Source of the DNA: an uncultured Alteromonas sp.
GTDB lineage: Bacteria > Pseudomonadota > Gammaproteobacteria > Enterobacterales > Alteromonadaceae
DNA: 64,000 nt
Direction of reading: 5' to 3'
Assembly: GCA_964584105.1 (NCBI GenBank)
Contig: CAZOYR010000003.1
Coordinates: 13,463 to 77,462, forward strand
Under the pieces are notes generated by a model, which had not been told where the DNA came from, did no database searches, and saw only the letters and a program-made list of their open reading frames with translations. The number at the start of each line of letters is the position of its first letter. The stretch's first letter is position 1. The position numbers were made by a program, and so were the translations under genes. This document shows positions 40,304 through 53,206 of the stretch, piece by piece.

Positions 40304-41617
40304 TCAGGATGATAATTCAGCATCGAGCTGTTCTTTACTGCTCTTTTCAGACTGAACAAACTTCTTCCACTGCTGGGCAATGCCGCGGCTTTTGGGGAAC
40401 TTCTCCGCCTCAGCCAGCTGGTTCAGCGCTTTGGCGTACTGACCCGTGTTGTACAACGCCATGCCTTTTACCAGATGTGGCATACCTTCGTTACGAAGTT
40501 GTCCTTTTTCCAGCGCCCGCTCAGCAGAACTGATCGCTTTCTGCCACTTTTCAGAGTTCAGATAAATCTGTGCAAGTTGCGCATCCAGCTCACCATCTTC
40601 TGACAAGGCGGCGGCTTCAGATAACGCCGGAATGGCTTTCTCATTTTCCTTGGCAAGCTGCCAGCTTTGTCCCAGAAAACGCCAGTTACGCAGGTTTTTC
40701 TCCAACGTACCATCAGACAGTGCCTGCTCCATCAGTCTGGCGCCTTTATAAGGTGCCCGATGGTAGTAGTAAAGCTGCGCCAGATTAAAAATATCGGCGG
40801 CACTTTGTACATAACCCTGCTGATAGGCTGTTTCCATAATTGCCAGCTGTTTACGCTCTTCGCCAAGCTCGCCAAACATACCCGCTAACTGAATCCAGTA
40901 TTTAGGCTCGTTGAATAACTTCACCATTTTTACCAGAATATCTTTGACCTTTTCCGGGCGCTTTAGCTCGTAATACACCGCTCGCTGCAGAATCAGCCAG
41001 CCTTCATCCGGGATCATGCCCTTGGCTTCATGTTCAGCAACAGCCTGGTCGATATAACCTGCCGCTTCTTCGTAGCTCTTGTTCTGGTACAACGCCTGGG
41101 CTTTCAGCACCTTGTTTTTAGGCGGGATGTCACCTTCATTCAGTGATTCCCAACGCTCAAGGTATTTCACCACATCGGTATAATTACCCTGCATCAGGTG
41201 AAGCTGCGCCAGCGAAAACAACGTCGACATTTCAAACTTGCGCGGAATTGGCTGCTGTTCGACTACTGTGGCAAACGACTCCAGCGCTTTTTCGTACTGT
41301 TCGTCGTTGTAATAAATAAAGCCATAGAAGTTGTACATCATCGCCTGTTCATAGCTATTCATAGAGCTTTTCTTATCCTCAACTTCGTCAAGGATAGAAA
41401 TGGCTTCTTTGATGTCACCTTCATCAGCAGCGGTTTGTGCCCGTGATAACTGGTCGTAAACCTTGGAGCGCAGTGTGGGCACTTTCCGGGTTTTCTTATC
41501 ACTGGCTTTCTGCTGCGCTACAGCATCTGTTGAAACCAGCATTGCTGGCACAGCGGCACCATATACCGATGCGACAATCGCTGCAGCTAACAGGCGTTTT
41601 GATAATGATTTATGCAT
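40304..41617 (-). CDS. Exported TPR-repeat protein of a TtpC-type TonB operon (TtpD-like)
   Basis: Long signal peptide and multiple TPR-like helical repeats; last gene after tonB as in Vibrio/Shewanella TonB2 operons. Confidence 0.85.
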   Translation of the reverse strand: MHKSLSKRLLAAAIVASVYGAAVPAMLVSTDAVAQQKASDKKTRKVPTLRSKVYDQLSRAQTAADEGDIKEAISILDEVEDKKSSMNSYEQAMMYNFYGFIYYNDEQYEKALESFATVVEQQPIPRKFEMSTLFSLAQLHLMQGNYTDVVKYLERWESLNEGDIPPKNKVLKAQALYQNKSYEEAAGYIDQAVAEHEAKGMIPDEGWLILQRAVYYELKRPEKVKDILVKMVKLFNEPKYWIQLAGMFGELGEERKQLAIMETAYQQGYVQSAADIFNLAQLYYYHRAPYKGARLMEQALSDGTLEKNLRNWRFLGQSWQLAKENEKAIPALSEAAALSEDGELDAQLAQIYLNSEKWQKAISSAERALEKGQLRNEGMPHLVKGMALYNTGQYAKALNQLAEAEKFPKSRGIAQQWKKFVQSEKSSKEQLDAELSS

Positions 41618-41623
41618 ATCGAA

Positions 41624-42232
41624 TTACCCGTCTATCTGGAACGTAATACGGTTTTGCACACCGGACACTTCCGTGGCTTCACCGTTCACAACACGAGGCT
41701 TGTATTTAAACTTCATCGCCGCATCCACGGCTGCCTGTTCAAAAATACCTTCCGGATTTGCCTCTACCACTATAGGGTCGCGCACGGCGCCTTGTTTGGT
41801 CACGGTAAACTCAACGATAACAAACCCTTCGATACCACGTTGTAAGGCACGACGCGGATATACTGGTGACACTTTAACGATAGGCAAATATTCGCCATCA
41901 CCCGAGTCCAGGGCTAAGCCACCATCAAGACCACCTTCAGCGCCTACATCTGAGCTGAAGTCCATGGAGGTGCCTTCTGCGTCTGGCGAAGGTGAATCCA
42001 TTTGTTGTGGCTGCATTTGCGGCGGTGGCTGCTCCGGCTTGGGCGGCTTACGCGGCTTGCGATCTTTTTGCTCTACCGTCTCCTCCTGCTTGACTCTGAC
42101 AAAGTCAAGCACGCTTCCCTTTGGCGGTTCCGTTAGTGCGCTGCCACCCATTTTGATCAATGACTGCATCAAAAAGAACAGGCCTAACGTAATCGCCAGA
42201 GAAGCGAAGAATGCAATAATAAATCGTGGCAT
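41624..42232 (-). CDS. tonB: Energy transducer TonB (short, TonB2-type)
   Basis: N-terminal TM, Pro-rich linker, PVYPRRA...GIEGFV-VEFTV...KFKYKP C-terminal domain. Confidence 0.93.
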   Translation of the reverse strand: MPRFIIAFFASLAITLGLFFLMQSLIKMGGSALTEPPKGSVLDFVRVKQEETVEQKDRKPRKPPKPEQPPPQMQPQQMDSPSPDAEGTSMDFSSDVGAEGGLDGGLALDSGDGEYLPIVKVSPVYPRRALQRGIEGFVIVEFTVTKQGAVRDPIVVEANPEGIFEQAAVDAAMKFKYKPRVVNGEATEVSGVQNRITFQIDG

Positions 42233-42235
42233 GAC

Positions 42236-42643
42236 TTACTGCTCTTGTGCTGCGATTGAAACGTCGTAAACACCTGCGGCGCGCGAAGCATCCATCACTT
42301 TAATCAGTGTTTCTGTAGTGGCTTTTTTATCAGCCTGAATAACCACCGTGCCCTGCGGATTCTCGGCGTGCAGGCGCTCGATATTGGCCTGTACTGCACG
42401 CTCGTCAACACGGCGTTTGTTGATCCAGATTTCACCAGTGTCTGAAATCGCGATAAGCACATTCGCACGATCTTTCTTCACGGCGGTTGACGCTTCAGGA
42501 CGATTTACATCAATGCCCGCTTCTTTAACGAACGACGCGGTAACGATGAAGAAAATAAGCATGATGAAAACAACGTCCAGCATGGGCGTCATATCGATTT
42601 GTGCTTCTTCTTCGTCGACCAGGTTTTGAAAATGCTGCTTCAT
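42236..42643 (-). CDS. exbD: Biopolymer transporter ExbD
   Basis: IDMTPMLDVVFIMLIFFIVT TM with conserved Asp; IQAD. Confidence 0.94.
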   Translation of the reverse strand: MKQHFQNLVDEEEAQIDMTPMLDVVFIMLIFFIVTASFVKEAGIDVNRPEASTAVKKDRANVLIAISDTGEIWINKRRVDERAVQANIERLHAENPQGTVVIQADKKATTETLIKVMDASRAAGVYDVSIAAQEQ

Positions 42644-42670
42644 AATTTGATACCTTAACTTAATGCCTTA

Positions 42671-43195
42671 TCAGACATTACGTTCAATGATGATTGCATC
42701 CTCAAGATGCGTGCGTTCAGATTTCGCCTGACGGTTTAGCCAGGTTGAGGCAAATACCCCTGACAGTGCGCCAACCATACCGGCCATTGTCGGAATCGTT
42801 GCTTTGGACACCCCTGATGCCATAGAACGTGCATTCCCTGAACCGGAGATTGCCATGACATCAAACACCTCAATCATACCGGTTACCGTTCCCAGCAGAC
42901 CCAGCAGCGGACAAAGCGCCACCAGAGCCTGGATAATCGGGATACTGCCATTCAACTGAATAGACAGGGTCGAAATCTTTTTCTGTCTTACCTGCTCGGC
43001 ATACCACGAAGAGCGATCAGAGCGGGCTTTCCACTCTTTAATAGCCTGCTTCTTCTTACTTTTGTGCCAGACCAGGATGTACATCGCACGTTCGAGGATC
43101 AAAAGCCACATAACGAATATCAGCAGACCGATGACCAGCAGAACCTGGCCACCTGTTTCTGTGAAATCGCGAATTGCTTCGAGAAACTCAAACAT
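42671..43195 (-). CDS. exbB: MotA/TolQ/ExbB proton channel (small ExbB)
   Basis: PLLGLLGTVTGMIEVF, MASGVSKA...TMAG. Confidence 0.92.
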   Translation of the reverse strand: MFEFLEAIRDFTETGGQVLLVIGLLIFVMWLLILERAMYILVWHKSKKKQAIKEWKARSDRSSWYAEQVRQKKISTLSIQLNGSIPIIQALVALCPLLGLLGTVTGMIEVFDVMAISGSGNARSMASGVSKATIPTMAGMVGALSGVFASTWLNRQAKSERTHLEDAIIIERNV

Positions 43196-43197
43196 GA

Positions 43198-44571
43198 TTA
43201 GCTCCGCTCAGCGCGCTCTGCGATAACCCCTGCAGCTTGTTCCTGCAGAATGTAAACGATGTTTTTGCTACGGGTATTAAGCATGGCGTAAAGCAGTGTC
43301 ATAGGAATCGCCACAACCAGACCCAGTACCGTGGTAACCAGTGCGGTTGAAATACCACCGGCCATCAGTTTAGGGTCACCCGTACCAAACAGTGTGATAG
43401 CCTGGAAGGTGTTAATCATACCGGTTACAGTACCTAACAGACCCATCAGCGGTGCAACAACTGAGATAATCTTGATGATGGTCAGATTACGGCTCAGTTT
43501 AGGCACTTCACCTAAAATGGCTTCGGTTAAGTGCAACTCCAGTGCTTCGGTATCCGCATGTGGATACGCATCACGTACTTTCAGTACACGACCCAGCGGG
43601 TTCGTTGTTTTGATTTCTTTAGACTTAAGCTGCTTGTCAACTTTTGCTTTAGTGATAGTCAGTGCTACTAAGCGCCAGATAGCCAGGAACAGACCAAATG
43701 CACCTACAATAAGAATGATGTAACCAACCACTCCACCTTGTTCAACACGCTCTTTAAGCGTTGGTGCTTGAACCAGCAGACCCAGGATGGAACCGCCAGT
43801 TGGGTCAATACCAAACTCAACAATATTGCCATCAGAGTTTTGCAGCGCAGACGCTGAGTCCTGATAACGGTCAGCCGGCTGACGAACCAGTTCAGCTACG
43901 GTGCCGGTAGTGCCGTTATAGTCCAGATACTTCCCATCTGATACCAGGGCAAAAGGCCCTATACGAACCACTTCTTTAGTGACTTTCTCGCCACCCGCTT
44001 CAACAACCGACGTTTCAAACGCTTCAACATCACCTGATTCGGTCATTTCACGCTGAATTTCAAACCAGACGCGCTCGATTTCTTCGATAGAGGCCAGCTT
44101 AGAGCTTTTGCCCATTTCCTGCGCCATGTTATCCAGAAATTCTGAACGGCCCGGGATTTGCGCTGAAATTACAGAGTTCTGGAACTTGCTCTTGGTATCA
44201 CCAGCTACCTGCTGTAGCACACCGAACAACTCTTTGAGTGAGCCCATACGGTTATCCAGCGCACCGTTTAAGTCTGCCAGTTTAAATTCGTTTTCTTCAA
44301 ACTGGGTTTCAAGTTTTTCAGATTGCTGTAGCAACTGGTCACGTTTGGCACGTGTGTCATCCAGAATCTGATCCTGTTGCGCACGCTGCTGCATGAAACG
44401 TTCTTCACGTTGCTTGTTTTGCTGGCTTTGCGTGAACTGCCCTTCTTCCAATTGCTTAAGCAACGCGTCCAGATCAAGCGCGCGGTCATTCTGCGCCACG
44501 GCGCCGAAGCTCAGGCCAACGGCAGTCAGACCAACTACAAGTTTTTTCATTTGTTTAAACATGGTCATCAA
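43198..44571 (-). CDS. ttpC: Large ExbB-like protein TtpC (periplasmic domain plus MotA/TolQ/ExbB domain)
   Basis: Signal peptide, coiled coil, IDPTGG, then APLMGLLGTVTGMI and GGISTALVTTVLGL. Exact start codon uncertain. Confidence 0.85.
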   Translation of the reverse strand: MMTMFKQMKKLVVGLTAVGLSFGAVAQNDRALDLDALLKQLEEGQFTQSQQNKQREERFMQQRAQQDQILDDTRAKRDQLLQQSEKLETQFEENEFKLADLNGALDNRMGSLKELFGVLQQVAGDTKSKFQNSVISAQIPGRSEFLDNMAQEMGKSSKLASIEEIERVWFEIQREMTESGDVEAFETSVVEAGGEKVTKEVVRIGPFALVSDGKYLDYNGTTGTVAELVRQPADRYQDSASALQNSDGNIVEFGIDPTGGSILGLLVQAPTLKERVEQGGVVGYIILIVGAFGLFLAIWRLVALTITKAKVDKQLKSKEIKTTNPLGRVLKVRDAYPHADTEALELHLTEAILGEVPKLSRNLTIIKIISVVAPLMGLLGTVTGMINTFQAITLFGTGDPKLMAGGISTALVTTVLGLVVAIPMTLLYAMLNTRSKNIVYILQEQAAGVIAERAERS

Positions 44572-44575
44572 CCTC

Positions 44576-45334
44576 TTACTCTGTCATTGCCACTGGCAGC
44601 ATCAGCATGTCTGGTGCCAGTTGTTTCTTCGCCATTCTCAGGCCTTTGGTAATCTGGGTGCGGTAGCTGCTATCCAGCTCTTCCCATTGGCGAGTCTGTT
44701 TGTTCCAGACACCCTGACTGCTGGCGTCACGCGTCTGATAAATCAGTGCCGTACGACCTAAGCGTAAAAACTCAACGTCACGCTCCTGACCGTCAATTTC
44801 ATGGATGCCGTTATACGCTTCCATGGTGCGGCCATATTCCATTTCTACCTGGTATGCTTCCATTACACGACGAAACTTTTCTGATGCGGCCACATCGGCA
44901 CGATCCATCAGATTTTTCAGATCAGCAACGCGATTGGCGCGCTCTTCGGGCAAGAACGGCACATCCAGTTCGATGAACTGCTCAAGACCTTCAATCATAC
45001 GAATCATCAATGGCGTGATTTGACGCTCAATGACCGATACTTCATCGATAGAGTCGTTCAAATCAGTCATTTCCTGATTCTGATTTTCGATCTGTTTGCG
45101 CAACTGCGCGTTATAAACTTCCAGACCCTCAATTTCTTTATTCAGGGTTTTAAACTGCTGAAGTTTACTGTCAATTTGGTTGGTGATTTTATTGATTTTT
45201 TCCTGTGACTGCGCCGCCGATTCATTAATCTTTGCCGCCTCATCCACCACGGGTTTTAAATCTTCATCATCTTGCGCCATAGCAGCGGATGCCATCATGG
45301 CACTTGCCAGTAACAAGGAGTTGAAAAGCTTCAT
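44576..45334 (-). CDS. DUF3450 family periplasmic coiled-coil protein (TtpB-like)
   Basis: Signal peptide, coiled coil, DVPFLPEER, EKFRR, EYGR, FLRLGR; first gene of TtpC-type operons. Confidence 0.87.
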   Translation of the reverse strand: MKLFNSLLLASAMMASAAMAQDDEDLKPVVDEAAKINESAAQSQEKINKITNQIDSKLQQFKTLNKEIEGLEVYNAQLRKQIENQNQEMTDLNDSIDEVSVIERQITPLMIRMIEGLEQFIELDVPFLPEERANRVADLKNLMDRADVAASEKFRRVMEAYQVEMEYGRTMEAYNGIHEIDGQERDVEFLRLGRTALIYQTRDASSQGVWNKQTRQWEELDSSYRTQITKGLRMAKKQLAPDMLMLPVAMTE

Positions 45335-45394
45335 ACACTCAAACCTTTTAATTTAAAAAATCGGTATGCACCGACCAGAATAGAAACTGCGCGT

Positions 45395-45428
45395 AGGATA
45401 GGAGTTTTCTGTGACAGTTTTATTACAT
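45395..45428 (-). promoter_or_regulatory. Pho box promoter for the DUF3450-ttpC-exbBD-tonB operon
   Basis: Minus strand ATGTAAT-AAAA-CTGTCAC, exactly 10 nt, then TATCCT. Confidence 0.78.
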
Positions 45429-45473
45429 GACTGTCATATATAAACGCAGTCAGAGGATTCTTTCTGAAGATAG

Positions 45474-45499
45474 AAAAAGAGCCGCAACATGCGGCTCTT
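45474..45499 (-). terminator. Intrinsic terminator after the TonB-dependent receptor gene
   Basis: AAGAGCCGC-aacat-GCGGCTCTT with a minus-strand U-tract. Confidence 0.8.
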
Positions 45500-45507
45500 A
45501 GCGGGGA

Positions 45508-48264
45508 TTAGAACGTGTAGCTATAGCTTAGGCCAAATTCGATACCGCGCTCTTCACGCAACAAATCAAGACCTTCCTGCTCAATACGTTTTTCCTGATC
45601 CAGCAGGTTTTTCACACTGAATTTAATCTGCGTATTAAAATCCGGATAATACGAGTAATTAAAATCAATGGAGTGGAACGTTTGTTCCTCTGCATCTTCA
45701 TTACCCCGTGTACCCGGTACGATAATCCGCGGACCAAAGGCGTTATAAACCAATGTGGCTGAATGCTCACCGTTAGGCGAGTCATAACCCATCTGCAGGT
45801 TCAGCACCCACTCTGAGTGACCCACCAGGCGTCGCACATTGTTGGTAACAATGTTCGAGGCACTGGTTGCATCCAGCGCATCCAGTAACTGACGCTCAAA
45901 CAGACTGGTGCGATCATCGTCGGCTGCACCGATGACAACTTCTGAGTCGGACACGGTCACGTTACCAGTGACAAAGAAGTCGACCAAGCGGTCATCGATG
46001 ATGCTCAGGTCCTGCAAAAACTCGACTTCCACACCGTATAGCTCACCGGACTCACCGTTGGCAGTCAGCAGGTTTGGCGCTGCGCCACCGACCGTACCCA
46101 GTTCAACCAACTCGATGGGATTTTCGATGTCTTTGTAAAATATCGCTGCTGATAGGTTATTACCGGCTTCGCGATACCACTCCCAACGAAAATCCGCGTT
46201 ACGTAGCTTGGAGCTTTTCAGCAGGGGCGAACCACGTACCAGAAACTCGGTCAGCGGATCGATGAAGAACGTGGTGCTGATGTCTCGTAAATCCGGACGA
46301 ATGGCCGATTCGCTGATATTAAAGCGAAACTGCATCTCATCATCCATGATGTAAGTCACCGCCAGTGACGGGAAGAAATCATCTTCCATAAACGCCAGTT
46401 GGGCAATCTCATCAGATTCTACCGAGAATGTGTTGGCATGGGCTGAAAATGGCACCGAAATCTGACGGAAGTCTTCATAGCGGACACCGCCGGAGAAACG
46501 CCATTTATTATTAATAAAGGCATCGGCCATTAAATAATAAGCGTCGATTTTGGTGCCAGCTGCATACTCGTCACCGTCAGCCATGTTCGACTGTAAGATA
46601 CCGGCACCCGTTGCGCTGCCGTAAAAGTCGTCGCTGGCCAACTGATCAGCCGCGAAGATTTCGTCAACTCTATCGCCAAACAAGGCATCGTCGGCAATCG
46701 CGCGGTGCGGAACCTGAATAGTGATATTTTCAGCTTTACGGGCTTTTTCAAAGAAATCTGCGCCAGCCTTAACTTCCAGGTCAATGCCATCAAGCATGAT
46801 GGGATAACCTAAATTCCAGCCCCATGTATCTGACACATCGCGCAAGCTTTGATACTGACGATTAACGTTGGTTGCAGAGACGTCCTGTAACTGTTGAGAA
46901 ACAAACTCACCGTTATCCAGGTTGTTCTGATAGGTGGCAGACAAACCACCGGGAGCGTCACGGTTTGCACGGCTGGTGCCCGCATACCAGTCGAAGTACA
47001 TGAAGTTGAGCTCAGGGAAGTTGTGCGTGCCTTTAATCTGGCTGGAGGTCATGCGACGCTCTTCGAACAGCATATCCACACGCTCAAGCTCACGGGTGCC
47101 AAAGATGGTTTCGTTAACATCCACAAAATCACGTACTCGAACGCGATCGTTCATGTCGTGTAAAATAACGTTGGTAAGTTCTAACCGGTGGTTACTGTTA
47201 TATTCGTAACCCACGTTGAACATGCCGCTCCAGCTAACGCTTTGCTCGGTTTCAACACCGTCGTATGATTGCGCGAAGCATTTACCGTTAGCGGTTTCGC
47301 TGTCAGGCAAGCTTGCACACCCTACAGTACCCAGGTTAGTGCCCGACTGTTCCTCGCCCACGTTCCACTCATTTTCATAGGAAATGGCAGATAAAAAGCC
47401 GAATTCACCCACGTCGGTAATAAAGCGGTTACCTAATGTCGCACCAATATCAAAATCGGGGTCGACATTTTTTGGATCCGGACCGATATCCCAGAACATC
47501 GAGCCCAGCATGGCCTTGCGCTCTTCAAGTGTGAGCGGGTACGTTCCAGAGCCTTCAATACCATCATCAGCCTGTGCTTTATCAAGGTTAGACTGGATAG
47601 TACCAGAAAGCGCGCGGGTACCGTCGTCGCGGCCGGTCCAGTCATCGCCACCGCCACTATAGAAGAAGCCGTCTGTAGAGTTGTTAGTATTATAGTCAAC
47701 GCCACCGGATACCTTGAAAACAAATTCAGAAGGGATGGACTTGGTGCGAATATTGACGTTACCGCCACCAAAATGCGCCGGCATATTCGGAGAGAAAGAC
47801 TTTTGTACATTCAGACTTTCTATAATATCCGAAGGAAATAAATCCAGAGGCACAACTGAGCGGGTAGGATCCGGACTGGGTACACCCATGCCGTTTAGCT
47901 GGGTACTTGAGTAGCGCTCACCCAAACCGCGTACGTAAATAAATTTACCATCAACCAGGGTAAGACCTGTTACACGACGAAGTGCCGATGCAGCATCGCC
48001 ATCACCAGTACGTGATATCTGATCAGCGCCTAGTATATCTGCTACGAATGCCTGATTCTGACGTTCCTGCAAAACAGCAGCGGCTGTGCCTTTAAGTCGT
48101 GTTCCCGTGGCAACCACTTCTTCGATGACTTCCTGATCATCGGCCTGAGTCTGACCTTCCTGCGCCAGTGCTGCCTGAGAGGACAGTGCGCTCGCCATTA
48201 GTGCAATGCTCACTGCTGAGCAAAGCTTCGATTTTGATGGCATCGAACGGCTTTTGTAAATCAT
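45508..48264 (-). CDS. TonB-dependent outer membrane receptor
   Basis: Signal peptide, TonB box IEEVVATG, plug motifs (RVTGL, YVRGLGERY, LDLFPSDIIES-V-KS, GGNVNI), beta-barrel, C-terminal YSYTF. Confidence 0.95.
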   Translation of the reverse strand: MIYKSRSMPSKSKLCSAVSIALMASALSSQAALAQEGQTQADDQEVIEEVVATGTRLKGTAAAVLQERQNQAFVADILGADQISRTGDGDAASALRRVTGLTLVDGKFIYVRGLGERYSSTQLNGMGVPSPDPTRSVVPLDLFPSDIIESLNVQKSFSPNMPAHFGGGNVNIRTKSIPSEFVFKVSGGVDYNTNNSTDGFFYSGGGDDWTGRDDGTRALSGTIQSNLDKAQADDGIEGSGTYPLTLEERKAMLGSMFWDIGPDPKNVDPDFDIGATLGNRFITDVGEFGFLSAISYENEWNVGEEQSGTNLGTVGCASLPDSETANGKCFAQSYDGVETEQSVSWSGMFNVGYEYNSNHRLELTNVILHDMNDRVRVRDFVDVNETIFGTRELERVDMLFEERRMTSSQIKGTHNFPELNFMYFDWYAGTSRANRDAPGGLSATYQNNLDNGEFVSQQLQDVSATNVNRQYQSLRDVSDTWGWNLGYPIMLDGIDLEVKAGADFFEKARKAENITIQVPHRAIADDALFGDRVDEIFAADQLASDDFYGSATGAGILQSNMADGDEYAAGTKIDAYYLMADAFINNKWRFSGGVRYEDFRQISVPFSAHANTFSVESDEIAQLAFMEDDFFPSLAVTYIMDDEMQFRFNISESAIRPDLRDISTTFFIDPLTEFLVRGSPLLKSSKLRNADFRWEWYREAGNNLSAAIFYKDIENPIELVELGTVGGAAPNLLTANGESGELYGVEVEFLQDLSIIDDRLVDFFVTGNVTVSDSEVVIGAADDDRTSLFERQLLDALDATSASNIVTNNVRRLVGHSEWVLNLQMGYDSPNGEHSATLVYNAFGPRIIVPGTRGNEDAEEQTFHSIDFNYSYYPDFNTQIKFSVKNLLDQEKRIEQEGLDLLREERGIEFGLSYSYTF

Positions 48265-48313
48265 GCTAAAAAACTCCGTTAGAGCTGAGTCTGGAATTAG
48301 GGGGCTTCTAACA

Positions 48314-48341
48314 GCTTAGGCGCCGAATCAGGCGCCTAAGC
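48314..48341. other. Intercistronic 11-bp hairpin between the lipoprotein and TBDR genes
   Basis: GCTTAGGCGCC-gaatca-GGCGCCTAAGC; no U-tract in the transcribed (minus) direction. Confidence 0.75.
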
Positions 48342-48368
48342 ATTTTTATTTACTCTGTGGCGTAAGCC

Positions 48369-49817
48369 TTATTCCAGACCTACTGTTACCCAGCTTTCAG
48401 TCCAGTCAGTCGTTGCATCCATTGCACCAATGAAGTCGGTAGCATCGAAGAAGCTGTCATCAATGCTGACGCTGCCTTCAAGCAGTACAGAACCTTCCGC
48501 CGGCTGATAGCCATTGTCAGCCAGTCCAAGGCCGTCCTGCGCAACAACACTGTTGCCTTCCTGTCCTTCAAACCAGGCTTGAGTGAAGCCTTCGCTGCCT
48601 TCGTCATCGCTGAAGTTATTACCTTCAGCACAGGCAACGACAGAGTTAGTCATGGTTAAATCACCCGCATCAGCATTCGCCTGAGACTCGGCGCCGTTAA
48701 CGCGCAAACAGTTGCTGTATGCATCCGGACCGGTGATAACAAATCCTGATAACGCACCGGCAGTACCAGCACGTAAACGTACGCCGTTGGCATCGTCTGC
48801 GCCAAGAATAGTGACGTTAGCAACAGTTGGGTTTGTCAGCGGTGTCGCCGCCGCATCAAACTCACTGTTGTCTGATTCAAACGCATTATCGCCATCTGCG
48901 GCGTCTTGCTTGATAAGCACGTATTGCGCTTTACCTGTCCAGCCGAATGACCAGTCGAAAGAATCATCACCGTTAGCAGTCAGTACAATGTGCTTCACAT
49001 TTACCGTACCGCCGAAAAATTCAATACCATCATCAAGATTCTGGTGAACCTGAATGTAGTCAACTTCAGTACCTGAGCCCACACCGGCAAAGCTGATACC
49101 ATTTAGCTCATCACCGTTACCCAGTGTACGTCCGGCGTGCTTAACGACAACGTAGTTAAGCTTACCAGAGCTATCTTCAGGCATGTTGCCACCAAACTGA
49201 CCCGCGTCACCTTCAGCAGAAACACCGCAGTTATTCAGCTCATCATCTGTAGTTTCACCAACCTGGTCACCACATGAGTTAGCCGGTGCACGACCTAACA
49301 GTACCAGACCGCCCCACTGACCGATGGTAGTCTCCTGACCGGTTACATCCTGAATGGAGGTCATGGTAATTGGCGCTTCAGCCGTACCATTTGCCATGAT
49401 TTGTGAACCACGACGAACAACCAGGAAATCTTCACCAGCCTGACCAATGATAGTGGTACCAGCTTCAATCGTCAGGACCGCTGAGTTTTCGTTATCACCA
49501 CCGACCGCGGTACGACCATCCAGTACCCAGTGTGCGTCGGCGCTTAATGTCGCATCTTCATTAAATTCAACATTTGAAGATAACTGATACACCGGCTTGT
49601 CTGTGATTTCAGGAAAATTTGCTGACACATCTGATGCCAGGCCAGCAGTTACCAGTGGGTTAGCATCACCATCTGTTGGCGGATCCGTCGGGGTGGGGTT
49701 CGTAGTGCCGCCTTCGTTAGTTACGTCACCTTCATTGATATTGATATCACCGCCGCAACCAGCAAGCACTAGCGCGCTGGCAATTGCAGATGCTTGAAAC
49801 AGATGCTTAATAGTCAT
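48369..49817 (-). CDS. Acidic outer-membrane/surface lipoprotein, probable beta-helix
   Basis: Lipobox LAGC, Thr/Pro linker, Gly/Asp/Asn-rich; GQWGGLVLLGRA, ELNGISFAGVGSGT, DDGIEFFGGTVN, DDSFDW motifs. Confidence 0.85.
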   Translation of the reverse strand: MTIKHLFQASAIASALVLAGCGGDININEGDVTNEGGTTNPTPTDPPTDGDANPLVTAGLASDVSANFPEITDKPVYQLSSNVEFNEDATLSADAHWVLDGRTAVGGDNENSAVLTIEAGTTIIGQAGEDFLVVRRGSQIMANGTAEAPITMTSIQDVTGQETTIGQWGGLVLLGRAPANSCGDQVGETTDDELNNCGVSAEGDAGQFGGNMPEDSSGKLNYVVVKHAGRTLGNGDELNGISFAGVGSGTEVDYIQVHQNLDDGIEFFGGTVNVKHIVLTANGDDSFDWSFGWTGKAQYVLIKQDAADGDNAFESDNSEFDAAATPLTNPTVANVTILGADDANGVRLRAGTAGALSGFVITGPDAYSNCLRVNGAESQANADAGDLTMTNSVVACAEGNNFSDDEGSEGFTQAWFEGQEGNSVVAQDGLGLADNGYQPAEGSVLLEGSVSIDDSFFDATDFIGAMDATTDWTESWVTVGLE

Positions 49818-49859
49818 TCGATTCTCCGTCAGGACTATGTATTTTTAAAAGACAGGAGA

Positions 49860-49918
49860 AGACTACATAAGCTTAATGACACTTTTGTTACATTATGACA
49901 CTGTCACAAAAGTTTTAT
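49860..49918 (-). promoter_or_regulatory. Pho box promoter for lipoprotein-TBDR, plus an adjacent oppositely oriented Pho-like box
   Basis: Minus strand ATGTAAC-AAAA-GTGTCAT, 10 nt, TAGTCT (49860-49893). Plus strand CTGTCAC-AAAA-GTTTTAT (49901-49918). Confidence 0.78.
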
Positions 49919-50105
49919 ATTTTCGCGGGAACTTAAAATTAAACATTAAAAATCAAAAGCTTGAGCTCTACCGAGCGCTAATTTCGACCCGATTCAGAGC
50001 ACGTCATGGTGCTTTTTCATGCACGTTGACTGAAACATTGTATTTTTAGACTACAGTATACGATTGGCCGACGATTATTTTCTGGCAAGTTGCGGCGTCA
50101 AATCG

Positions 50106-51059
50106 TTACTTTTCATCAAGCAATCGCCGCTGACGCAACAGAACATCTTCACGCACCGGGAAGTAGCCATCTCTTGATACCTGCTGCTGGCCTTGCCGGG
50201 ACAAGACAAAGCGCAGAAACTCTCGCTCCAGCACCGGCAGTGGTTTACCGGGCGCCTTATTAATCACCAGATACAAGAAACGGGCAAACGGATACGTCTC
50301 GTTGCGTACCGTATCGCTGGTGAGCGGGATAAGATGTGCTTTATCCGTACCTATGGGCAGCGCACGCACGCCAGCCGTTTTGTAACCGTAGGCAGCATAG
50401 CCCATACCATTTCGGCTGGTTGCAACTGACAGCACCACAGAGGCCGACCCGGGCTGCTCATTCACCGTGGCGCGAAAGTCACCATCGCACAGCGCCATCA
50501 CTTTAAACAGCCCATAGGTGCCTGACACAGAATTACGGCCAAACAGCCGGATGGGGGAATTGCTGATGCCGGTATCCACACCTAATTGATGCCAGTGGGT
50601 GATGGGCTCAGGGCCGCCGCAAAAGCGCGTGTGAGAGAAAATGGCATCGACCTCCTGCAGCGTAACCCCGTCAATCGGATTACGTCGTTCTACAAAAATC
50701 GCAATCGCATCCATCGCGACCCGCAGGACTGTAGGTGGGTAGCCGTGTTCACGGGTGAACTCACGGATTTCGCTGGGCTTTAATGCCCGGCTCATCGGCC
50801 CGATTGTCGCCGTACCTTCGGTCAGCGCAGGCGGCGCTGTGGAAGAGCCGGATGCCTGAATCTGAAATTTAACCTGTGGATACAGTGTTTTGAACTCCTG
50901 CGACCAGAATGTCATCAGGTTAGCCAGGGTGTCAGAGCCGACAGACGTGATCTTCCCCGCCACGCCCGGTTGTCGCGTATATTCAGGCACGTCCCGGGGC
51001 TCAGCGAGAAGCGCCCCCGACACGACAAAACACAACAACGCAGTAATTATTTTAAGCAT
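50106..51059 (-). CDS. pstS: Phosphate-binding periplasmic protein, PstS family
   Basis: SVGSDTL, GSSTAPPAL, MSR, GRNSVSGTYG, EQPGSASVV; coupled to the phoR stop. No pstCAB in this window. Confidence 0.9.
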   Translation of the reverse strand: MLKIITALLCFVVSGALLAEPRDVPEYTRQPGVAGKITSVGSDTLANLMTFWSQEFKTLYPQVKFQIQASGSSTAPPALTEGTATIGPMSRALKPSEIREFTREHGYPPTVLRVAMDAIAIFVERRNPIDGVTLQEVDAIFSHTRFCGGPEPITHWHQLGVDTGISNSPIRLFGRNSVSGTYGLFKVMALCDGDFRATVNEQPGSASVVLSVATSRNGMGYAAYGYKTAGVRALPIGTDKAHLIPLTSDTVRNETYPFARFLYLVINKAPGKPLPVLEREFLRFVLSRQGQQQVSRDGYFPVREDVLLRQRRLLDEK

Positions 51060-52357
51060 TATGTTCCTGCAATTAATTCCTGGCTGAGTAAAAATGAAAA
51101 TTCGCTCCCCTGCCCGACAGTACTGGCAATTTCCAGCCGGGAGTTATGATGGGTCAGTACATGCTTAACGATCGACAACCCCAGACCGGAGCCGCCTGTT
51201 TTACGGGACCGGGCCTTATCCACCCGATAAAACCGTTCGGTCAGACGCGCCAGATGATTTTGCTCAATGCCGTCGCCATTATCAACTACGGTAAATCGGG
51301 CCCCGTCGCTGACGGCTTTCCAGTAAACATCTATCTGTCCGCCGGCAGGTGTGTAATGCACAGCGTTAAAAACCAGGTTGGAACAGGCGCTGCGAAGTTC
51401 CGTCTCTACCCCGAAGACTTTCAGCGTATCTTCAATATGAAAGGTAATCGTATGGTGTTTGTCTTTATTTAGTGCCTGCGCTTCGGCTTCCATCTGACGG
51501 AACATTGCCGGCATATCAACGATGTTCTCGTAGATACGCTCAGAGCTTGCCTCGATGCGGGATAGCACCAGCAAATCTTCGACCAGATTCTGCATGCGCT
51601 GGGTTTGCGCTGACATTTCGTTAATGGCTTTTGCCTGAAACGGGTCGACCTGCTCATCAGCTGGCAATAATTCAAGATAGCCATGCAATACAGTCAGTGG
51701 TGTGCGCAATTCATGGGATACATTAGCCACAAAGTCTTTACGCATTTCCTCCAACTGAGACACCCGCGTAATATCCCGGGCAATCAGCAGCAGGTGCGCT
51801 TCACCATAAGGCATTATGCGGTATTCGAATGTTTTGCCCGGGTTCGTCGGTGCAGGCACTTCGATAGGATGATCAAAATCGCCGGCATGAAAATAAGCGA
51901 TAAAGTCAGGGTGCCGGATAAGGTTATCCAGACGCCGCCCGGCATCAGCCGGCCACTTTAATCCTAAATCAAGACGGGCCAGACGGTTACACCAAATAAT
52001 ATTCGCCTTAGCATCGACTACTACCGCAGCATCGGGAAGTGCTTCTGAGCCCTCACGAAAACGCTTTACCAGCTCGCCCAGCTCTTTGCGTTTATTACGA
52101 TTACGCCGCTGCAGATAATAGATACCTTCATAAATATGTTCCCACACACCCTTTACAGTAGGTGGCGACATTTTGCGGCTATGCCACAGCCAGCGATTCA
52201 GTTTAAGCAGTTGCCAGTAATTGATGGTAAGCAAGACCAGCGCGCCCAGCGTTATTGCCAGCAACATATCATCCAGGTACCACCCCACTGCAGCAAACAC
52301 CAGCAAATAACCGCCTAATCGCAGCAGGCTTTTTAACCAGGAAAAAGGATAGTACAT
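51059..52357 (-). CDS. phoR: Phosphate regulon sensor kinase PhoR
   Basis: N-terminal TMs, PAS, [47 protein letters not shown]. Confidence 0.97.
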   Translation of the reverse strand: [432 protein letters not shown]

Positions 52358-52395
52358 AGTTAACGCATTGAACCTTGGTTGGGGAGATGAGCATT

Positions 52396-52423
52396 AAAAG
52401 GCACAGTGTAGAGAACTGTGCCT
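52396..52423 (-). terminator. Hairpin with short U-tract between phoB and phoR (partial terminator or stabiliser)
   Basis: AGGCACAGT-gtagaga-ACTGTGCCT, followed on the minus strand by a short U-run. Confidence 0.6.
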
Positions 52424-52433
52424 GTAAGGAAAG

Positions 52434-53120
52434 TTATTTTGTGGAAAAGCGATACCCCGCTCCACGCACGGTCTGAATCATAGCATCGTGACTGTGTTTG
52501 GCGATCGCTTTACGCAGACGACGTATGTGGACATCGACGGTACGATCTTCAACGTACACATTTGTTCCCCAAACATTGTCCAGCAACTGCTCACGGGAAT
52601 AAACCCGCTCCGGATGTGTCATGAAAAAGTGCAGCAATTTAAATTCGGTGGGGCCCATATCTACTGCTTCATCATTGGCCGACACTCGATGTGAAGTGGG
52701 TTCCAGTTTCAAACCGTTAAATTCGATGGGCTCTTCTTTAGAAGTAGGCGTTACCCGTCGCATTACTGCTTTAATGCGCGCCACCAGCTCTTTAGGCGAA
52801 AACGGCTTGGTAATATAGTCATCGGCTCCTGCATCCAGCCCGCGAATTTTGTCGTCTTCCTCGCCGCGTGCGGTTAACATAATGACCGGGATATCACGGG
52901 TAAACTCGTGTTGCTTCAGATGTTTTGCCAGCTGAACCCCACTGCCCCCGGGCAGCATCCAGTCCAGCAAAATCAGATCCGGATACGGCTCACAGATTTT
53001 TTCCTGTGCAATATCATAGTCTTCCGCTTCTACGGTATTAAACCCTGACTGCTCCAGTACAAACTTTAACATTTCGCGAATTGGCGCTTCGTCCTCAACC
53101 AATAAGACTGTCCGAGACAT
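52434..53120 (-). CDS. phoB: Phosphate regulon response regulator PhoB
   Basis: [60 protein letters not shown]. Start set at ATG 53120; 53138 is the alternative. Confidence 0.98.
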
Positions 53121-53152
53121 AGACTGTTTCCTGCTCATTTTTAAACGCCGCC

Positions 53153-53206
53153 ATTATTCATTGAATCTGTGACAGTTTTATTAAATGGGTTACAGTTATA
53201 TGTCAA
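53153..53206 (-). promoter_or_regulatory. Tandem Pho boxes in the phoB promoter (autoregulation)
   Basis: Minus strand TTGACAT-ATAA-CTGTAAC, cc, ATTTAAT-AAAA-CTGTCAC, 10 nt, AATAAT. Confidence 0.8.

Follow-up and report, generated by a model that had tools for sequence, protein, structure and literature searches.

An Alteromonas locus predicted to be PhoB-controlled combines an ElpS-family lipoprotein and receptor with a TtpC-type TonB operon that has its own Pho box

In Caulobacter crescentus, the lipoprotein ElpS (CC0170/CCNA_00169) is encoded directly before the TonB-dependent receptor CC0171 (CCNA_00170). Here we describe a homologous pair in a 64,000-nucleotide (nt) stretch of DNA from an uncultured Alteromonas sp. 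(contig CAZOYR010000003.1, positions 13,463 to 77,462; hereafter the window, numbered from its first letter), where it lies between phoB-phoR-pstS and a six-gene TonB operon. Both Caulobacter genes belong to the direct PhoB regulon, with log2 changes of +10.2 and +8.0 (PMC11208175), and the elpS promoter is PhoB-dependent (PMC5172544). ElpS is surface-exposed, phosphate-repressed and insensitive to iron, and is not itself a phosphatase (PMC2996285). Price et al. (bioRxiv 10.1101/2023.03.17.533168) linked ElpS with Fjoh_0546 (FII) of Flavobacterium and BT4056 of Bacteroides as one family, found the pair genes near each other in 621 genera, and proposed that the lipoprotein forms a lid on the receptor, with few high-confidence contacts. 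Fjoh_0546 and its receptor Fjoh_0545 lie in the phoBR region and are up by +9.9 and +8.0 (PMC8115612; bioRxiv 719427). The TonB2 and TonB3 systems of Vibrio consist of six genes (PMC6957404); of these, TonB2 carries a Fur box and is induced by iron limitation. Two sets of TonB genes have been linked to phosphate starvation. The Pseudomonas aeruginosa exbB2-exbD2-tonB4 genes belong to the sigma-VreI regulon, i.e. are under control of an extracytoplasmic function sigma factor (PMC7035377). The Caulobacter exbB/exbD genes CCNA_02420-02421 are a direct PhoB target according to Lubin 2016 and ‘not regulated’ in later data (PMC11208175 supplement).

Comparison with these systems indicates both likeness and difference. 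As in Caulobacter, a lipoprotein of about 50 kDa with an LAGC lipobox directly precedes a homologous receptor, and the window pair carries a conserved predicted PhoB box. The Caulobacter pair is followed directly by the genes for type II secretion (T2SS). In the window it is instead followed by a TtpB-headed TonB operon and preceded by phoBR-pstS, and the T2SS genes are located elsewhere with their own box-like site. Like Fjoh_0546/0545 and BT4056/BT4055, the window pair combines a pectin-lyase-fold lipoprotein with a receptor, although homology to the Flavobacterium and Bacteroides proteins follows the statement of Price et al. and not an alignment. It also shares the phoBR neighborhood of the Flavobacterium pair. 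The accessible descriptions of the Flavobacterium and Bacteroides pairs include no TonB operon alongside, unlike the window. In the content and order of its six genes the window TonB operon matches Vibrio TonB2 and TonB3, but its box is of the Pho type and a Fur box is absent. For the P. aeruginosa genes and CCNA_02420-02421, the accessible sources list no Ttp accessory genes and report no link to ElpS, which also distinguishes them from the window. The first-pass annotation had put forward a phosphate-induced receptor-lipoprotein pair; this stands as the published ElpS/CC0171 family, and the pair itself is not novel. The newer part is the motor, a TtpC-type paralogue with its own Pho box; the pair was already known, as were phosphate-linked TonB genes of another form. 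A literature search, with most subscription papers outside its reach, returned no account of a TtpC-type operon under PhoB control.

PhoB-activated promoters of Escherichia coli contain two 7-nt half-sites 11 nt apart, located 10 nt before the -10 element. Three promoters in the window have this geometry, all on the minus strand and all with a 10-nt spacer. Box 1 (ATTTAAT-AAAA-CTGTCAC, 53186-53169; -10 AATAAT; whole element 53153..53186) heads phoB-phoR-pstS. Box 2 (ATGTAAC-AAAA-GTGTCAT, 49893-49876; -10 TAGTCT; 49860..49893) heads the lipoprotein and receptor genes. Box 3 (ATGTAAT-AAAA-CTGTCAC, 45428-45411; -10 TATCCT; 45395..45437) heads the TonB operon. The first-pass annotation had identified these three boxes and overlooked further elements beside them. 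A conserved extra element is found upstream of each box, led by TTGACA and out of phase at phoB, and inverted at the other two. At phoB it is TTGACAT-ATAA-CTGTAAC (53189..53206, minus strand), 20 nt upstream of box 1 and not in the 11-nt phase; it is conserved in the genus alignment, and may be a basal sigma-70 -35 element or a second PhoB site. An inverted box, CTGTCAC-AAAA-GTTTTAT (49901..49918, plus strand), is located head-to-head with box 2, and an inverted site scoring at least 11 is present near box 2 in 22 of 37 upstream regions of relatives. The inverted half-site beside box 3 (45431..45437) is conserved as well.

The significance of the boxes depends on their context. A plain consensus search allowing three mismatches gave three matches against 5.2 expected, which is not significant, and only the 45411 site was among them. 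We used a strict rule, under which 12 or more of the 14 half-site positions must match, with an AT-rich spacer and, after exactly 10 nt, a hexamer xAxxxT. The rule was derived from the E. coli consensus, and the window sites were not used for training. In the genome holding the window (G000; 89% complete, 3.45 Mb scanned) it found 11 sites, three of which are the boxes of the window. Nine of the 11 are intergenic, compared to zero to three in each of 10 shuffles. Among 1377 upstream regions, five pass the strict rule and 24 a relaxed one. Box, spacing and -10 taken jointly are significantly above chance. The rule is imperfectly sensitive, since it rejects the pstC site (11/14). In upstream regions of relatives, mostly of one genus, an xAxxxT hexamer follows the best site after 10 nt in 33/33 cases for phoB, 35/37 for the lipoprotein gene and 33/33 for ttpB; the spacers differ while the box geometry stays. 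The arrangement claimed at first, three 7-4-7 boxes exactly 10 nt before a -10-like hexamer, is thus confirmed by coordinates and conservation. A sigma-70 scan found 17 sites where 16.4 were expected. None of them coincided with the three promoters on the coding strand, which would fit a replacement of the -35 element by the Pho box. Judging from the conserved boxes and the published induction of homologous pairs, the three units are very probably controlled by PhoB, as had been proposed.

Iron control is not apparent. The best Fur match at the three window promoters is 10-11 of 19, and no score above 13 occurs across 40 window-type ttpB loci, whereas the same scan gives 14-15 in five of eight Vibrionaceae TonB2-type loci. 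The absence of a Fur box noted in the first-pass annotation is therefore upheld. Published expression data on Alteromonas macleodii cover iron and carbon limitation (PMC7190382). MASE_03045-03080 correspond to the window locus by gene order, not by sequence comparison, with a hypothetical protein, a receptor, DUF3450, ExbB and ExbD. The flanking genes also agree with those of the window: a benzoate transporter gene lies upstream, and acnB lies downstream. Under iron limitation these counterparts fall by 1.2-3.1 log2 units (03045, -2.55; 03055, -2.52; 03060, -2.52; 03065, -3.06; 03070, -2.64; 03075, -1.62; 03080, -1.20), so that no iron induction is seen, and a different DUF3450 gene is up by +5.4 (PMC7190382).

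The TonB operon has the order ttpB-ttpC-exbB-exbD-tonB-ttpD. TtpB, TtpD and TonB3 are defined here, and ttpB and ttpD placed by position, as in PMC6957404. The genes, all on the minus strand, are ttpB (DUF3450, PF11932; 44576..45334), ttpC (43198..44571), exbB (174 residues, PF01618; 42671..43195), exbD (PF02472; 42236..42643), tonB (PF03544 and TIGR01352; 41624..42232) and ttpD (tetratricopeptide repeat families; 40304..41617). TtpC is a 457-residue MotA/ExbB protein, like ExbB, with a long N-terminal region and a C-terminal ExbB-like membrane domain (PF01618 at residues 337-443; predicted helices at 280, 368 and 409). An intrinsic terminator 3’ of the receptor gene (45477..45499, minus strand) separates the operon from the pair, in agreement with the first-pass annotation.

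G000 encodes a second six-gene TonB operon on contig C5, where the contig end cuts off its promoter. In a sample of 120 family genomes, all have a TtpB match, and 89 have a copy of the window type, defined by at least 51% TtpB identity, each together with a further TtpB match. A housekeeping TonB role for the window motor was rejected, as another TtpB-level copy exists in 120/120 genomes and the window type in only 89. Upstream of ttpB, the strict rule is passed by 24 of 40 window-type loci (31 relaxed), taken from these 89 and representing 39 genera, compared to none of 20 lower-identity loci. In 24 of the 40, the 7 kb upstream include an ElpS-type receptor. Of the other 16, eight pass the strict rule, or 7/14 when two short contigs are excluded. 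In genome G271 the lipoprotein gene and ttpB are 1.7 Mb apart, and the box is retained.

The motor was called ‘dedicated’ at first. Both motor and ElpS are present in 89 of the 120 genomes, motor alone in none, ElpS alone in 11, and neither in 20; both-or-neither contrasts occur within nine genera, and genomes G018 and G021 also lack both. The description holds in that an accessory paralogue occurs only with ElpS (89/89), and fails in that 11 of 100 ElpS genomes lack it. These observations bear on whether the motor is PhoB-controlled but general, supplying TonB capacity to all receptors made at low phosphate, with the ElpS receptor using either motor. Consistent with a general role are its own promoter behind a terminator, the persistence of the box in operons unlinked from the receptor, and the 11 ElpS genomes without it. 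So are the several receptors in the Caulobacter PhoB regulon (PMC11208175) and the similarity of the TonB operon genes while receptor alleles are swapped, as described below. However, none of the 120 genomes keeps the motor without ElpS, G018 and G021 lack both, and 24 of the 40 loci have an ElpS-type receptor nearby. We regard a general motor as possible but doubtful, and think that the window motor probably powers the window receptor.

The two motor types were also compared in TtpB trees. In a FastTree tree, the window type forms a group of 41 tips (support 0.57), which joins four receptor-led Vibrionaceae loci and genome G332 (0.974). G332 is one of the 20 lower-identity loci of the box comparison and groups apart from the others. 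The C5 type groups with Vibrio TonB2-type loci, opposite the window type (0.985). The same grouping is found in an IQ-TREE tree, calculated without supports. The Vibrionaceae loci are called TonB3-like by layout only. They are sisters of the window TtpB, but share 41-43% identity with it, have no Pho box, and their receptor has no match to that of the window. A search of 101 Vibrionaceae genomes did not find ElpS. A role of Vibrio TonB3 as a phosphate motor was considered and is not supported, given the missing Pho box at the four TonB3-like loci and this negative search. The window motor is likely a power supply for phosphate famine, not the iron-uptake motor that it resembles.

Other Pho-type sites are found in G000. 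The remaining strict sites head glpQ (C5:53661), gspC and, 320 nt away, rpoH, and five have no nearby co-oriented gene. The gspC site heads the T2SS operon (contig C14:18091, locus L220) and stands 10 nt before TAGTGT. Among 30 genus loci it passes the strict rule in 10 and the relaxed rule in 26; a boxed gspC in trans echoes the elpS-gsp linkage of Caulobacter. A box-like site precedes a PHO4/PiT transporter gene downstream of the pst genes (C29:10641), and three half-sites spaced 11 nt apart lie before a phosphate-porin (Porin_O_P) family gene on C28 (L221, upstream of 30431). Boxes matching 13/14 without a canonical -10 precede genes for a 103-residue protein with a likely signal peptide (C91:10400) and a 532-residue protein (C123:3526), both candidate Pho regulon members. 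PhoA, GlpQ and PstC/A are encoded in the genome. A further explanation is that the boxes bind another OmpR-family regulator, or that free phosphate, at very low concentration, is what the module takes up. Deviation of the boxes from the ideal consensus, a carbon response in A. macleodii (see below) and the PstS encoded next door could be read in this way. It is nevertheless very unlikely, as the same geometry precedes phoB itself and glpQ, the homologues are PhoB-dependent (PMC5172544, PMC11208175), phosphate-porin-family genes exist, and the lipoprotein is strongly acidic.

The lipoprotein (482 residues; 48369..49817, minus strand) has its LAGC lipobox at residues 18-21. A first profile search of local Pfam/NCBIfam copies assigned it to no family; PF28492 (Beta_helix_4) was matched later, and corresponds to one right-handed beta-helix module. 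The closest named record, L071 from Salinimonas profundi, is 99% identical. L141 was used as a stand-in for CC0170 in the comparison (486 residues, 49 kDa, LAGC at residues 20-23; 17-20 in ElpS). L141 is 45% identical to the window protein over 266 residues (E 6e-63), is the sole match in its genome, and is followed by a receptor and gsp genes; the named cluster members listed are all Caulobacter. Its locus has the cc0170-cc0171-gsp layout of PMC2996285, and on this ground the window pair is assigned to the ElpS family. In the order around Maricaulis, 151 of 201 genomes gave a family member. The number of modules varies from one to three.

A predicted model of the lipoprotein (pLDDT, the predicted local distance difference test score, 92.5 with 78 sequences) is a right-handed beta-helix; a single-sequence prediction reached only 40.6. 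The top structural matches (Z 20-22.7) are lyases, epimerases and tailspikes, the best being Pel9A (Z 22.7, root-mean-square deviation 3.3, 292 residues aligned). The Z values are flat across all beta-helices, indicating the fold only. Foldseek gave no match to the model at E 0.001, and a sequence search of the PDB gave none. The protein contains 74 Asp/Glu and 15 Lys/Arg residues, with an isoelectric point of 4.05. D262, D263, E266, D284, D285, D288 and E314 are invariant and located on successive rungs by predicted secondary structure, and the conserved H258 and R349 adjoin this acidic cluster. The acidic motifs are also conserved in Caulobacter-labelled homologues. Pectate lyases bind a cation through an acidic site, and we infer a comparable cation site at the cluster.

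Two further explanations center on this protein. It could act as an enzyme or adhesin with a beta-helix fold, breaking down or gripping a phosphorylated surface polymer or mineral; it would be released from the cell, and the receptor would import the product. The fold matches, H258 and R349 beside the cluster and the variable module number agree with this, as do the cleavage and release of ElpS via the T2SS (PMC2996285) and the boxed gspC gene. However, the flat Z values and the absence of a Foldseek match give no indication beyond the fold, and refolded ElpS had no activity on p-nitrophenyl phosphate (PMC2996285). An enzyme or adhesin is unlikely, and would be partly compatible with the lid-like role that we favor. 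Alternatively, the pair could import a metal (Ca, Fe or Zn) for loading phosphatases during phosphate starvation, rather than phosphorus. PhoX and PhoD are Ca/Fe enzymes. The acidic cluster and low isoelectric point would suit a metal ligand, and ElpS overproduction raised phosphatase activity though ElpS itself had none (PMC2996285). Yet PhoX and PhoD were not found with the queries used in G000 or the complete genome G006, both of which carry the module; PhoX is present in most other genus genomes tested. PhoA occurs also in genomes without the module, and elpS is unaffected by iron, which makes metal import quite unlikely.

The receptor (918 residues, CC0171 type; PF07715 and PF00593; 45508..48264, minus strand) is 29% identical to that of the L141 locus over 918 residues (E 6e-84). 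A homologous receptor is encoded in 63 of 68 lipoprotein loci from several phyla, five of which run on into gsp genes. Between the two window genes we found a hairpin with an 11-bp stem and no good U-tract (48314..48341, minus strand), overlooked at first; an Rfam search gave no match. Strong hairpins occupy the same place in relatives; their sequences differ, and they are often followed by U’s. The hairpin is likely a partial terminator or stabilizer giving excess lipoprotein. In Caulobacter, raw counts are about 2:1 for lipoprotein to receptor (PMC11208175 supplement).

The pair evolves differently from its surroundings. Across 30 genomes of the genus, PhoR averages 82% identity, TtpC 88% and the receptor 61%. 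The pairwise values of PhoR and TtpC are correlated (0.79), whereas either shows hardly any correlation with those of the receptor (0.13-0.14). Sixteen genome pairs are more than 93% identical in PhoR and TtpC, yet their receptors are 46-49% identical and their lipoproteins have two versus three modules. Lipoprotein and receptor, which lie between boxes 2 and 3, are thus swapped jointly among close species, suggesting that they are co-adapted partners.

The eleven open reading frames (ORFs) of the locus, identified by profile search of the window ORFs, are all on the minus strand and span 53138 to 40304, as the first-pass annotation had listed them. The upstream unit contains phoB (52434..53138; TIGR02154, 369 bits against a cut-off of 296; likely start 53120, judging from the ribosome-binding site), phoR (51059..52357; TIGR02966 and NF008235 above cut-off) and a PstS-family phosphate-binding protein gene (50106..51059; TIGR02136 above cut-off). 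In G000, pstC and pstA are on the separate contig C29, and no second pstS homologue was found. The order phoBR-pstS-lipoprotein-receptor-ttpB is kept in 30 of 34 genus loci. Several variants were seen. A 2OG-Fe(II) oxygenase gene (PF13640, 266-282 residues), absent from the window, is inserted between pstS and the lipoprotein gene in L034 (3999-4811) and about ten other genus loci, mostly alongside three-module alleles. In locus L033 (genome G032), pstS is split into two ORFs (130 and 206 residues) and the receptor gene into two (168 and 749), reflecting a frameshift or assembly error. phoBR is divergent from the pair in Rheinheimera/Arsukibacterium records (L079-L087), and downstream of it in several other gammaproteobacterial records (L090-L092, L112).

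Taken as a whole, we consider the following mechanism fairly probable. At low phosphate, PhoR would lead to phosphorylated PhoB, which would bind the three boxes and activate the three promoters, switching on the ElpS-family lipoprotein, the receptor and the accessory six-gene motor together. The hairpin would yield more lipoprotein than receptor. The lipoprotein would most likely be located on the surface as the receptor’s lid, where a bound cation (Ca, Mg or Fe) would allow it to hold its ligand. The receptor, energized by the accessory motor, would import a phosphorus-bearing molecule across the outer membrane. Periplasmic enzymes (PhoA, GlpQ) would free phosphate, which would enter through Pst. 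The motor would likely serve other PhoB-induced receptors too. That the cargo contains phosphorus has slightly better than an even chance. The acidic cluster, the negative charge and the inferred cation point to an organic, polymeric or mineral-bound source; free phosphate is a weaker candidate because of the phosphate-porin-family gene with three half-sites elsewhere in the genome.

Several observations weigh against this mechanism. Sixteen of the 40 window-type loci fail the strict rule. By the TtpB query the motor is missing from the 11 ElpS-only genomes and from G063, and there the pair presumably can run on another TonB. The co-occurrence counts are inflated by kinship among the genomes and by the joint loss of linked genes. 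In A. macleodii the receptor is unchanged under iron limitation while its neighbors change; under carbon limitation ttpB (MASE_03055) falls by 4.2 log2 units and two phosphate-binding-protein genes are up (PMC7190382). This drop makes a second regulatory input possible. A CRP site was considered as such an input and rejected; the best match in the window is 7/10, and none is conserved. In Caulobacter, elpS deletion left alkaline phosphatase unchanged, and cc0171 was called constitutive, data not shown (PMC2996285), which later RNA-seq contradicts (PMC11208175). BT4055 and BT4056 had no clear fitness phenotype (Price et al., bioRxiv 10.1101/2023.03.17.533168).

In Caulobacter and Flavobacterium, few outer-membrane modules are as strongly phosphate-induced as the ElpS pair, which occurs in hundreds of genera. 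Its natural one-, two- and three-module alleles permit direct tests of specificity. Since the TonB paralogue has its own Pho box, one deletion should abolish phosphate-specific energized uptake and spare iron uptake. If the proposed mechanism is true, it would give a job other than iron to a TtpC-type motor whose branch is the closest to the unexplained TonB3 of Vibrio. Marine organic matter is recycled to a large extent by alteromonads. We tentatively suggest, as a possibility rather than an expectation, that Alteromonadaceae split their outer-membrane energy supply by nutrient. One TtpC-type paralogue would be wired to PhoB and kept chiefly for an ElpS receptor that imports cation-bridged organic or mineral-bound phosphorus; the cassette would be swapped from species to species to retune the substrate or to escape phages, and the motor would stay fixed.

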